Source: Octopus vulgaris
Lineage: Eukaryota
Assembly: GCA_951406725.2 (NCBI GenBank)
Contig: OX597826.1
Coordinates: 18,538,001 to 18,602,000, forward strand
Length of the DNA stretch: 64,000 nt
Reading direction: 5' to 3'
Below, piece by piece: positions 48,844 through 55,392 of this stretch. Position 1 is the stretch's first letter, and every line of letters starts with the position of its first letter. The position numbers and the translations under genes were made by a program. The notes below the pieces were generated by a model, which searched no databases, was not told the DNA's origin, and saw only the letters and a list, made by a program, of their open reading frames with translations.

Positions 48844-50105
48844 TTATCTTTTGGATTTCAAAAGAATGGAAGTCAAAGTTGACAGGTCACTAGTCATTGC
48901 CTCAGTGAGGCCTAATGTGCGAATATCGTGCTTCACCACCTCATCCCAGGTCTTACTGGGTTTACCTCTTCCACAGGTTCTCTCAACCGCTAGGGTGTGA
49001 CACATTTTCAAACAGCTATCCTCATCCATTCTCACCACATGACCACACCAGCACAGTCGTCTCTCTTGCATGCCACATCTGATGCTTCTTAGGTCCAACT
49101 TTTCTCTCAAGGTACTTACACTCTGTTGAGTATGCACACTGACATTACACATCCAGCAGAGCATACTGGCTTCATACCTTGCAAGCTTACGCATATCCTC
49201 AGCAGTCATGGCCCATGTTTCACTGCCATGTAGCATGGCTGTTCGTACACATGCGTCATACAGTCTAACTTTTACTCTGAGCGAGAGGCCCTTTGTCCCC
49301 AGCAGAGGTAGGAGCTCTCTGAACTTTGCCCAGGCTATTCTTTTTCTAGCAGCTACACTTTCAGAGCACCCACCCCCACTACTGACTTGGTCACCTAGGT
49401 AATGGAAGCCATCAAATACTTCTAGTTTTTCTTCCTGGAATGTGGCGGAAGTTGTTCTCTGTGCATTTTCAGAGTTTATTGCTCCTGAGCATCTGCCACA
49501 TAGAAAAACTATCTTCCCAGTTAGCCTTCCTTTGACATTGCTGCACCTCTTATGTGTCCATAACTTACACTGGAAACTAGCGTTTCTACCTATGTCTTTT
49601 CTACAGATCGAGTAGGGCCATCTACCTGAAGGGATTTGTGGTTTGCCTGCCTTCCTGCTTATTAGGACTTTGGTTTTAGCTAAGTTGACTCTAAGGCCCT
49701 TCGATTCTAATCCTTGCTTCCACACCTGAAACTTCTCCTCTAGTTCTAAGAGTGACTCAGCAATTAGAGCAAGGTCATCAACATAGAGGAGTTTCCAGGG
49801 GCGTCCTGTCTTGAATTGCTCTGTTATTGCCTGGGGAACTATGATAAATAGGAGGGGGCTGAGGACTGAACCTTGGTGGACCCCTACCTCTACCTGGAAT
49901 TCTTCATCATACTTGTTGCTAACCCTCACCTTACTGACAATGTCCCTGTGCATGGCTCGTGCAGCTCTCACTAACCATTCTTCTATCTCTAGTTCCCTCA
50001 TTGACCACCAGATAAGGGATCGGGGGACCCTGTCAAAGGCTTTCTCCAAGTCAACGAAATCTAGGTACAGAGGTTCATCTTTGGCTAGGTATTTGTCCTG
50101 CAGCT
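48844..50105 (-). pseudogene. RTE LINE reverse transcriptase fragment (401-aa open frame), truncated at both ends
   Basis: FVDLEKAFDRVPR, GVHQGSVLSPLLF, LLYVDDLAL, GLRVNLAKTK, FHYLGD, HGSETW, WCGHVVRM, GRGKPSKTW; homology ends at ~48882 where a SINE B fragment takes over. Confidence 0.95.
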
Positions 50106-50769: not shown

Positions 50770-51150
50770 AAATCGTAGTGGCCCTTCAACAGCTGAGTGT
50801 CTCATCTCTGTACATCATCCTGCAGCCTTCCACCTCAAAGCTATCCATCTTACGCACTCATATGGATATGTCCTCCGTCTCCCACTAGATCACTCTGCCA
50901 AAGCTTTATTCTTATTCAAGGCAGCAGGTGTGGGTTGGAAGAGGCCTCATGACAGGTCCTGCACCAGAGAAATGATTAGGGAAGATCTCCAAAAGCTCAA
51001 CGTCACCTTGGATGATGCAGAGGGGCTGGCATGAGACTGCCAGCGATGGAGTGCTGGTGAGCCTGGCAAACTCTCTGCATGATGATGTCTCTGGGACCAC
51101 TAACCTGGAATGACCCCAGCCCCATGAGGCAAGAGCATGAAGCAAGCAAA
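50770..51150 (+). pseudogene. RTE LINE C-terminal remnant
   Basis: YGYVLRLPLDHSAKAL..GWKRPHDRSCTR..IREDLQKLNVTLDDAEGLA*DCQRW. Confidence 0.75.
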
Positions 51151-51276
51151 CACTCATTATAAAAAGGTGAATAGCAACTGTTAGTCAACAAGTACGAAAT
51201 ATGTCTATGGTTGGATACTGGCTCATTGAAATTATGGATTACAATTTTCTCACATCAGAAGTTAGTATAATTATCA

Positions 51277-52640
51277 ATGCCATCAATAAGAATTAACCTT
51301 CTTATGTCAAGGGATAATTCTGCAGAGGTCTTTGATAAATTTATTATCTAGTTTGAAAAGATATATTAGGCTTATGAAGCTAGATAAGAATAATAAATTG
51401 GAATTATTTCTATTAAGTCTGTGTCTACAACAACCACTTATTACAACAATACAGAGTGGCCTGGAATTACAAGAGAGAAGGTTGAAAGTAACATTACATT
51501 GTATTCAAGAAGAAAATATTTACAAACAACAAAATATGCTCATGTATATTCATTGAAGCAAGAGACCAGACAATGATGTTTAGAAAAAAAAAATTCAAAA
51601 ATCAAAGGGAAATAACTCAAATAAAGCATATGCAAATTATGATGACCAAAAATTATCTACAACGGTTTTTTTTATATATATGTAAAAATCTTTGTCAGCT
51701 GAACAAGCAGGTTTGAGTAGACTATACTATGCTGATGAGGTCTAATAGACAGAAACATTATCATTCCTTTTCTTTGTGAGTCACTTGGTTTTTGTTTACT
51801 TTCTCCAACTAAGAAGGAAGTTTCAATCAAGAATTTTTTGCATATGGCATTCAGCACATCACTATTTTCACTTATTTATCAATGACTTTGCCAGTTATCT
51901 TTGACAAATATCAAAATATTGTATATTTTCTATATTATTTACAAAGGAAGTTGTAAGATAGACTTTTGGTCAAAAATGAAACAATGAAACTGATCAAAAG
52001 GCAGTTTGCCATATCTTTACCTTGTTTCATGCAAATGAAAAAACCTTAACATTGCAAGATACTGTTTTTACAGTCCAATAGGAAGAGTCCACTATCAATG
52101 TTGTGGTCAACTTTAGTCTAAATTATTATAATCTTATGTTACTACTGTGGAGAAATCAAGTTCAGTTTAGGTTAAAATTATTTTACTTTGGATCAAAAAA
52201 GAAACAAAATCTTCCTTATTTGTGCCATCAGGATGATGAATTACCCCTGATGACTCCCTTGACAAATGTAATGTGTTTGTCATGGAATATTCTAACATTA
52301 TTTTTATTTTTCTTTTTTGCAAGACACACATCTCGTTGGCTAGATACAGACAAGTTTTCTACACTTGCACACAAAGAACTAGAATAAATACAATAAAATG
52401 TTTTATCAAATGTGGTAACAACTCTGCCAATATGCTATCTTTGATTTGTTAATTTTCTTGACTCCCAGAATCCTTAAAAAATGTCCTGCTGCTGATAAAC
52501 AATGTTTTAATTGTGATACAACATTTTGTAAAAGGTATGTTGAAAACTAACCATATCAACAGTGTCGTTTCATCAACCGGCTGAGCAAAGATCGACAGTG
52601 ACCCAATATAATCTAGATGTCTTAGGAGACAACATCACCA
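51277..52640 (+). pseudogene. Decayed Ty3/Gypsy (Mag-like) Gag sequence interrupted by intron-like segments
   Basis: Ordered motifs FDKFII*FE..RLMKLDKNNKLELFLLSL; YSLKQE; VVR/DRLLV; HANEKTLTLQDTVFTVQ*EES; KCFIKCG; KKCPAADKQCFNCD..HFVK..C, compared with Gag WxxYxxRFE, FxxRxQ, IRDRLV, LTLxxA and CxxCG..CPAxxxxCxxCxxxxHFxxxC. Confidence 0.6.
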
Positions 52641-52745
52641 TAAAGATTTAATATTTCTTTTAAAGACAAATGTGAAACAGTTTAATAACTATCAAAGTTG
52701 CTTTTGAAGACCATCACTCATGAAAAATCAGAAACGTACAACCAG

Positions 52746-52920
52746 ATGAGGAATGAAATAAAAGAATATGAAATAACTTTGCTGACTCTGCTGAACTGGA
52801 GGATGAAAATATAAATCTTCAGAAACATTTGTCACAATTGTAACAGAACCAGGTAAACTATGAAGTTTCAAAGAAGAGAAAAGAACAGTTCAAGAGGAAG
52901 TTGATGATTTGAATAAAGTT
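52746..52920 (+). pseudogene. BicD: Bicaudal-D (dynein adaptor) N-terminal coiled-coil fragment, disabled
   Basis: MRNEIKEYEI/NFADSAELEDENINLQKHLSQL*QNQVNYEVSK/..VQEEVDDLN compared with the BICD-family segment [56 protein letters not shown]..LN as recalled; two frameshifts, one stop. Confidence 0.75.
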
Positions 52921-53058
52921 TGAAGAAACAAAAAAGAAATTTCCCAAAATTAAAGAAAAGAAAAAAGAGATAAGAAGAAGGTAGCCAACCTACTTAAATG
53001 ATTCTCATGGTTTGTCCTGAAGATAAACAATGACTACTTATTGAAATATTTTGTGCAG

Positions 53059-53131
53059 GTAATTACCAAGTTTTGTTTTACCCACAAATTACTAACTTTT
53101 TGACATTTTTTTCTAACTGTTCTTTCTTTAG
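53059..53131 (+). other. Canonical-looking 73-nt GT-AG intron followed by AATAAA
   Basis: CAG|GTAATT donor, TACTAAC at 53090-53096, second CTAAC, ttctttctttAG|G acceptor; AATAAA at ~53196. Confidence 0.5.
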
Positions 53132-53739
53132 GTGTGCAGAGAATGTAGTACCGAGTGTTCTATAACTGTTTTATAATGCTATGTTAATTACTGACAATAA
53201 AATTATGTAAGATCACGAGAGTCCCATGCATATACATACTCACTTCTTATCAAAATAATTTTGAAATATGAAATGTGTCTATGGCTGGATATGGATTCTA
53301 TCAAATTATGAATTAGAGAAACAGGAAGAAACAAACAGAAATTAATGACACTTAACATGAATTGTGTAATTCTAATCAATGGTCTCAGATGATATGATGG
53401 AATGTATTTTAGAGTGAATAAACTTCTAAAATTGGGTGTGCAAGAATTTTAATGTGAAAACAAGGCATTTTGTTAATAACTTCTCAATCAATAAGACAAA
53501 GAAGGAAAAGAATAAATTCCTTAACATGGAAAGGAATTGTAGTCATAATTAATATTATTTTCAGAAGATAATTATGAAACTTAAACAGCAGAAAATGAGT
53601 GTGTTTCTTTTATTTTGAGTATATAACAAGCTAAGAAAGAGAACAAGTTATGAAAATAACAATCCAACCATATTCTTCCATTCTTAATCCACTTTGAGAG
53701 ACTATGTGTAGAGATACAGGAAGTGTTCTATGAAACATC

Positions 53740-54312
53740 TCTGGCAGCCCTGCTGACACGTAACAAGGGTTGAGTGTGAGCTTAATAAAGATTTGGTATG
53801 CAGATGCAAAAAGTGAGTAGGTAGGAACTGTGTACCTGATACCAACAATGGGCAACAACAGGTGTAATGTGGTCTAAGGCAAACTGATAGGGATGGATTT
53901 TATATAACAGAAGAAGCTAGCAGTAAGAGCACCCAAGAAAGAAAGAAGTAACAAACCCAGAAAGTTCATTAGAAATAGTTGATAGCTTCTGCTACTTAGG
54001 AGATAAATAATCCCATAGAGGAGATGAGCATTATAAAAGCTAGAGTGAGGACAGAGTCAAAAAAGTTCAAGGAGCTTTTATTTCGGTTGATAACAAAGGT
54101 CTTTTCTTTCTGAGTAAAGAGTAAAGTGTATGAAGACTAGTTTTCAGAATATGATACAGCATAGTTGTGAGATATAAATACGAAATGCTGAAGATACATG
54201 AAATCAGGAATGCAACAAGGAAACAGAAATAAATTTATCCTCTGCTGGATGTGCAATGTCAGCATACATGAATGAGAGAGCACGAAAATACTGAAAGAAA
54301 AACTAGACATCA
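53740..54312 (+). pseudogene. Old RTE family 1-like internal fragment
   Basis: SLEIVDSFCYLGDK..KARVRT..KKFKELL..VKSKVYE..LCWMCNVS; heavily decayed. Confidence 0.7.
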
Positions 54313-54784: not shown

Positions 54785-55245
54785 GAATAGATCTTCCCAA
54801 ACTCAGCAAATCCCCAATATCTTGGTCCTTTGTCATCTCTGTGAGGCTCAACATCCAAATGCCATTCTTCCCAAGTCTTCTCGAATCTTCCTCTTCCACA
54901 GGTTCCATCTACATTTAATGATTAGAACTTCTTTATCCAGCTGCTCTCATCTATACGCATCACACAGCTAAGCCTATGCAGTCCTCTCTCTTGCACACTA
55001 CACCTCATGCCTCTTATGCCCAATTTTTCTCTCAACACATTTACATTTTGTTGTACATGCACCTTGTTACACATCCAGTAGAACATGCTAGCTTTGTTTC
55101 TTTTAAGTCGTTTTATCCAAGCCCATGTTTCACTAACACGTAGCATTGTTGCTTGTACATTTGCATAGTACAGTCTGCCTTTTGTTGCCAACAGAAGCAA
55201 CAGCTCTCTGAACTTTCTCCATCCTGTTCTTTTTCTAGCAACCTC
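54785..55245 (-). pseudogene. RTE LINE fragment
   Basis: ORF 54922-55200 KGRLYYANVQATMLRVSETWAW..LREKLGIRGMRCSVQER. Confidence 0.85.
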
Positions 55246-55392
55246 CGTTGCTACTAAATTATAACTATAACCCTTTCAGTAACTTTTATGACCTGGTCCA
55301 GCAATTTGATGCCTCTGCAATTACCTATCTCTAAGGCATCTTCTTTACCCTTGTAACTGTTGACTATAATGCTATATCATACAGTTCTATAT

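Follow-up and report, generated by a model that had tools for sequence, protein, structure and literature searches.

An old Ty3/Gypsy copy in Octopus vulgaris carries an N-terminal piece of host BicD in place of PR to IN

The stretch of DNA analysed here (the window, 64,000 nt of Octopus vulgaris contig OX597826.1) contains a Gag-like sequence that is broken up by short segments with splice-like ends and is followed by a coiled coil resembling the N-terminus of Bicaudal-D (BicD). This arrangement raises the question of whether the locus is a decayed, spliced and perhaps domesticated Gag-derived gene coupled to a dynein adaptor, as proposed in the original prediction, or a structure of another kind, and of how its two parts came together. 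The region at about 51135–53317 belongs to a dispersed family of Ty3/Gypsy LTR retrotransposons, of which it is one old, long-decayed copy. Its order is LTR, gag, BicD, pol tail and LTR, with two later insertions in gag. The features of the copy are as follows:

51135–51243, plus strand: 5′ LTR remnant (3′ half), with an approximate start and other DNA in place of the 5′ half; repeat of 53264–53315 (77% over 52 nt); aligns with sister 5′ LTRs
51300–51573, plus strand: N-terminal part of gag, broken by stops and frameshifts; corresponds to P0121 aa 29–115; 65–75% DNA identity to many copies
51574–51874, unstranded: insertion 1, made up of rearranged fragments of another dispersed repeat; hammerhead-like core CTGATGA..GAAA at 51732–51756; ends TG..TA
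51875–52199, plus strand: gag, C-terminal part of the capsid region to the start of the zinc-finger region; corresponds to P0121 aa 119–189 and P0122 aa 117–189; 10-copy alignment
52200–52474, unstranded: insertion 2, containing the second and third ‘introns’ of the original prediction and the ‘exon’ between them; 52353–52445 matches another repeat
52475–52590, plus strand: gag zinc knuckle and linker; frameshift within the knuckle and a stop after it; corresponds to P0143 aa 233–256 and P0127 aa 276–287; alignment
52575–52682, plus strand: host BicD exon 1 piece, aa ~41–81, CC1-box region; QYNLDVL against host QYGLDVL; score 82 against a shuffle maximum of 51 (0/1000)
52673–52963, plus strand: host BicD exon 2 piece, aa ~128–245, with deletions; 75% to the host gene; Pfam BicD
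52965–53143, plus strand: last pol codons and T-rich 3′ UTR; aligns with six sister copies
53144–53317, plus strand: 3′ LTR, starting TGTAGT; internal deletion, end approximate; contains a non-conserved AATAAA; aligns with sister LTRs

A DNA search of the 2.8-Gb genome with 51200–53300 gave at least 47 matches, including the window itself (40 of 206 candidates were scored). Of 56 large loci compared, 54 contain part of the family, and its 3′ end is visible in 21. The sister copies are 65–85% alike to the window copy, and five of them (L038, L047, L048, L049 and L050) have a repeat of about 220 nt at both ends, 1.9–3.9 kb apart. The original prediction noted no LTR; the window copy is, however, flanked by a 52-nt direct repeat with 77% identity (51190–51241 and 53264–53315) that matches the LTRs of sister copies in the alignment. 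No TSD can be read, because the start of the 5′ LTR is lost, and the window copy shows no clear polypurine tract. Behind the 5′ LTR, where a tRNA primer site would lie, about half of the copies have a site complementary to their own LTR. It comprises about 17 nt (51244–51265 in the window) that can pair with an LTR stretch some 50 nt upstream; this pairing is the best local match in 9 of 19 copies, although each match is weak individually (L031, L032, L033, L035, L036, L038, L042, L043 and L050); in the window copy, this LTR partner is partly deleted. Such a site resembles the self-priming of Tf1/Sushi elements described in the available text of PMC6317226.

The attribution of the family follows from its relatives. 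A single-copy Gag query had no match among proteins of 388–2000 aa, and a profile of 14 natural gag stretches was needed, which matched 25 proteins. Twelve of these were scanned with Pfam: four (P0121, P0130, P0141 and P0143) are single-ORF Gag-PR-RT-RH-IN polyproteins, Retrotrans_gag or zf-CCHC was found in four, and one, P0136, is unrelated. P0121 also aligns to RT and integrase pieces in sister copies; L047 contains RT and then IN pieces, and L032 has an RNase H match (E 3e-10). The intact Gag-Pol relatives, the P0121 alignments and the RNase H of L032 therefore place the family in Ty3/Gypsy. The family is old, with a star-like tree and a median end branch of 0.23 changes per site. As originally noted, the window copy is full of stops and frameshifts (36–40 stops per frame) and has no protease, RT or integrase: protein comparison found no PR/RT/RH/IN core in it, about 2.9 kb of pol is absent, and only the final pol codons are left, at ~52965–53005. 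The window copy is non-autonomous. Internal deletion is common in the Gypsy family here; in L139, L049, L048 and L110, much of pol is gone and there is no BicD. The element is flanked in the window by reverse-transcriptase-like frames at 48844–50103 and 54922–55275, both on the minus strand, which we take to be of LINE type.

The Gag motifs lie in the predicted order, P0121 aa 29–115 aligning to 51344–51573 and aa 119–189 to 51884–52096, and the knuckle at 52479–52535 gives a weak protein match. A direct Pfam scan of the window frames recovers BicD only, neither Gag nor zf-CCHC, so that the Gag assignment stands through relatives that have Retrotrans_gag and zf-CCHC and align to the window, and not through a direct profile hit. 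Like the single-ORF Gypsy Gag-Pol elements P0121, P0130, P0141 and P0143, the window copy has an alignable Gag N-terminus, capsid region and knuckle, as well as LTRs; unlike them, it has lost everything from PR to IN save the last codons.

The GT and AG letters that suggested introns are present at the places named, but that they mark introns is not borne out. Donor-like words number 14 against a mean of 17.9 in 500 shuffles and acceptor-like words 10 against 12.7, which is no enrichment. In place of an intron at 51664–51946, the foreign DNA is really 51574–~51874; it begins with TG, ends with TA and belongs to another repeat family, and the proposed acceptor sits about 70 nt inside gag-homologous DNA. 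The segments 52268–52323 and 52415–52468 both fall within insertion 2 (~52200–52474), which has no 5′ GT. The GTATGT at 52535, read as the donor of an intron at 52535–52616, aligns with the last Val-Cys codons of the knuckle in six of seven aligned sister copies, a reading that was missed because of the frameshift inside the knuckle; the gap measurement at this site has only three informative rows, the other five of eight being mis-anchored. The 73-nt ‘intron’ at 53059–53131 is the 3′ UTR of the element, and its donor and acceptor occur in none of six homologs, while the AATAAA is present in none of five.

Sister copies run contiguously across the gaps in gag, and the gaps are other repeats. 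Relative to the intact Gag-Pol proteins, insertion 1 is located between aa 115 and 117; the site measures 3–29 nt in seven of the 11 measurable copies against 304 nt in the window, in a count that keeps poorly anchored rows and in which three copies have 107–213 nt of their own and one is mis-anchored, with a negative value. At the site of insertion 2, all nine measurable copies have at most 21 nt against 275 nt in the window, poorly anchored rows again being kept. The repeat part of insertion 2 has four other matches at 78–87%; its first ~150 nt (52200–52352) have no match in the genome search or in the loci compared. Insertion 1 consists of pieces in swapped order and in both orientations, from a repeat with 43 other matches in the genome. 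L038, a second gag copy bearing BicD, has 29 nt at the insertion 1 site and is without the insertion, which therefore postdates the spread of the BicD copies.

The relatives of insertion 1 (L026, L030 and L053–L061) are copies of a dispersed repeat whose type I hammerhead-like motif has a 6-bp helix I, a 4-bp helix II and a tiny helix III and occurs in tandem about 410 nt apart in L058. The core is found at eight places in seven of the 11 relatives, four with the helix I partner CATAGT; Rfam gave no match for the motif in insertion 1. The repeat may be retrozyme- or Penelope-like. Like the non-LTR retrozymes and Penelope-linked type I hammerhead repeats of PMC7229834 and PMC4209133, as far as the available parts of these papers describe them, insertion 1 has the core and the 4-bp helix II; unlike them, the window copy is cut after GAAAC and is without the second helix I strand.

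That a decayed multi-exon Gag-derived gene, or an element with introns, was fused to BicD is thus so improbable that it can practically be set aside. GT/AG and pyrimidine tracts do exist, insertion 2 has an AG with a pyrimidine tract close to its 3′ end, and the absence of the segments from sister copies is what processed copies would show. The missing segments, however, end elsewhere than proposed and without a 5′ GT, no GT-AG intron coincides with a segment missing in homologs, insertion 1 belongs to another repeat family and is lacking in L038, splice-like words are unenriched and LTRs are present. Contigs from four runs, guessed to be RNA, bridge 52034–53900 (X10), 52319–53900 (X11) and 52390–52615 (X17) gap-free, with no GT-AG joint listed in them and no piece spanning insertion 1; they may be DNA or pre-mRNA and carry little weight. 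What looked like introns are insertions or GT/AG letters occurring by chance. Domesticated Gag genes, among them Arc and PEG10, are single-locus and open and have no LTR pair. Like them, the window copy is Gag-derived sequence in an animal genome; unlike them, it is one of dozens of dead LTR-flanked copies and has no open frame.

The predicted likeness to BicD is borne out by Pfam (BicD, E 2.8e-5) and by a 75% match to the DNA of the host gene at 52733–52963. The host gene has coding exons for aa 1–86 and 87–836, about 8.1 kb apart on C11, and its protein is 99.5–100% identical to that of Octopus bimaculoides; there are only two coding exons, the second of 750 codons (L051:1486-3735, L094:1512-1769, C11). 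The segment 52673–52726 matches exon 2 and beats 500 of 500 shuffles. Taking 52580–52672 as the start of exon 2 gives a weak match (12/500 shuffles), and the exon 1 match is better. Homology to the element stops near 52590 and resumes near 52950–52965 with the last pol codons; BicD therefore replaces PR-RT-RH-IN. About 390 nt of host BicD stand in place of the PR-to-IN DNA, the exon 1 piece abutting the exon 2 piece in order, and the internal ORFs are replaced and not interrupted, with the gag linker on the left and the pol tail on the right. The exon–exon junction itself is missing in the window copy, since a deletion of about 140 mRNA nt spans it.

At the 5′ join, 15 of 21 nt are the same in L046, a sister copy, as in host exon 1, including an identical core of 10 nt; this similarity was seen with a single sister copy. 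L046 (ETVKQKF) and the host (ETTQQKL) are in the same frame there, and the register of the window is that of L046 up to the join and that of the host after it, with no gap, so that gag and BicD are joined in frame; a stop interrupts the stretch from the knuckle to the join. The 3′ join is A-rich; it appears in frame in the window and out of frame in L038, and differs by one letter in organism E. In organism E, pieces of the same locus reach the right flank and include parts of both insertions; there are 65 letters at 52735–52739, roughly at the point at which ~51 nt of the host sequence are missing from the window. The Ala and Gly of the CC1 box are Val and Asn in the window copy, the coil is broken, and the Spindly-type motif (LLSEI in the host, near aa 345 by inspection) is outside the captured part. 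None of the features of a dynein activating adaptor (CC1 box, long CC1 coil and Spindly motif) is intact in the window copy.

The chimera of Gag and the BicD N-terminal coil was predicted correctly, and the two parts co-occur at one other gag locus. L038 (C8) is composed of a 5′ LTR, gag, about 2 kb of other repeats, BicD mRNA nt 298–730 (62% to the host, E 1e-26), a 3′ UTR and an LTR; exon 1 has no significant match in it. At a third locus, L108 (C5), an LTR piece is followed by BicD nt 571–734 (64%, E 4e-9) and the 3′ UTR, BicD thus lying between LTR pieces, and no gag is recognisable. Directly upstream of the 3′ tail, BicD is found in three of 21 copies and neither BicD nor integrase-end-like DNA in seven; the remaining 11 have integrase-end-like DNA, a class resting on DNA likeness, with protein evidence coming from a separate comparison. 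Three BicD copies are a lower bound, as genome searches miss old copies; searches with the BicD parts of L038 and L108 and with BicD aa 36–133 yielded no further ones. A weak model match at L018/L087 (E 0.018, opposite strand) was taken as chance. Two short matches at L105/L106 (C8:6733835-6734213), with 82% and 98% identity to the final ~110 nt of the BicD coding sequence, are possibly a separate 3′ retrocopy of BicD.

In the three copies, which lie on three chromosomes, BicD ends at host mRNA nt 730–734. Compared with the host, the window copy and L038 have 22 changes in common, where about 8.5 are expected, and 15 of the 22 alter the protein; about half of the shared sites are near alignment-block edges, and mRNA 614, one firm shared site, is of CpG type, a change that can arise repeatedly. 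All three copies have four sites in common against 1.15 expected (p ~ 0.03, crude model). At aa 205 and 207, within gap-free blocks, three cephalopod outgroups have the host residue. The flanks of the three copies differ, save for one 72-nt match, and the 5′ join is seen only in the window copy. The shared end point, the shared changes and the unshared flanks are most simply read as one capture with later transposition, which the trees neither demonstrate nor exclude.

It is probable that the locus is a decayed Ty3/Gypsy copy in which PR to IN was replaced by a host BicD N-terminal piece, likely by capture from mRNA and likely as neutral cargo. BicD mRNA would have been co-packaged in a particle of the element, and reverse transcriptase would have switched onto it and back at short shared sequences. 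This single capture would have been followed by at least two more transpositions in trans, using enzymes of autonomous relatives, with BicD carried on as neutral cargo before the copies decayed. Against this explanation, the exact exon–exon junction is not retained, L038 is without a significant exon 1 match, L108 is without recognisable gag, and the gag and 3′-end trees are star-like and leave the BicD copies ungrouped. The missing junction and the ungrouped copies would suit entry of BicD at the DNA level, by break repair or ectopic recombination, or multiple entries in place of one RNA-level capture, as would the A-rich 3′ end point, where alignments may stop for compositional reasons. Entry at the DNA level, however, requires a deletion of about 8.2 kb joining two exons, the host upstream DNA has no match to the element except one common repeat, the breakpoint and changes are common to the copies, and one grouping of the BicD copies is not rejected (p-AU 0.33); we regard these alternatives as distinctly improbable.

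The other departure from the neutral mRNA capture concerns what the chimera did. It may have made a useful Gag–BicD fusion, whose CC1 coil would tie the particle to dynein for transport, the lineage spreading thereby and then dying out. This would be an octopus Gypsy subfamily without enzymes, in which the in-frame capsid–BicD coil served as a built-in motor adaptor lacking the C-terminal cargo-binding part of BicD. The join in frame, with no gap relative to L046 or the host, agrees with this, but the odds of such a frame are at least 1 in 3 and rise when the switch is driven by shared sequence. Three loci carry BicD, and the captured part begins shortly ahead of the CC1 box and takes in a large part of the dynein–dynactin-binding coil, as delimited in the available text of PMC9481740; two CC1-box residues are nevertheless changed and the Spindly-type motif was not captured. 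The amino-acid changes of L038 are more conservative than the null in the BicD frame (9/2000, against 1171 and 992 in the other frames; pooled 13/1000), but the same test gives 6/2000 for L108 in the wrong frame and 451/2000, no signal, for the window. For the exon 2 piece of the window, dN is 0.18 against a dS of 0.57 that includes host synonymous change, in blocks chosen as alignable; dN of the exon 1 piece is 0.45. The conservative changes in L038 and the exon 2 ratio hint at some selection and so speak against neutral cargo. Neutrality is indicated by the stops in L038, which are not depleted (eight in 141 BicD codons, where 5.7 would be expected in the absence of selection), and by the predominance of nonsynonymous changes in the shared stem. 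The LTR pair of L038 is only 51% alike, against 65–75% in three other copies, and its extra divergence is therefore mostly post-insertion decay. No fused protein occurs among the 120 listed of 185 BicD matches (412–1313 aa) or among 13 shorter ones, and no BicD part occurs in the 25 Gag-profile matches. All copies are riddled with stops, and the Gag–BicD chimera is a small dead subfamily. The evidence of selection for a fusion is weak and mixed, and a functional fusion is rather unlikely.

Captures of host sequence by LTR retrotransposons have been described in flies, mosquito, fish, chicken and mammals as LTR-mediated retrocopies (Tan et al. 2016, PMC5131818); in the available text, these form by template switches at short shared sequences and can undergo secondary retroposition, as in maize Bs1. 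The octopus copies are similar in that a partial host sequence, likely from mRNA, replaces internal ORFs and loci have common switch points, and the 5′ join of the window copy may show microsimilarity; secondary retroposition with shared switch points is seen as three loci with the same 3′ end and unshared flanks. Unlike the cases in PMC5131818, whose main text contains the word ‘mollusc’ 0 times, the octopus copies have a mollusc host, are very old and decayed, carry a dynein-adaptor coil in frame with Gag and do not retain the exon junction. Compared with the N-terminal activating fragment of BICD2, as presented in the available part of PMC9481740, the captured piece likewise includes the CC1-box region and much of CC1 with no C-terminal part; it differs in ending at aa ~245, before the Spindly-type motif, in its changed CC1 box and in the loss of aa ~82–127. 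HIV-1 capsid has been reported to use BICD2 (PMC7910843), which is disputed by PMC10491134, both according to their available text. In the literature searched, in which few subscription papers were covered, no account of a retrotransposon capturing BicD came up.

The locus illustrates that nested repeats can yield spurious ‘introns’. If the in-frame fusion was functional, it would represent a retroelement that had appropriated a motor adaptor in place of binding the one of the host. As neutral cargo, the BicD piece would extend LTR-mediated retroposition with secondary spread to a cephalopod, a result of modest value.
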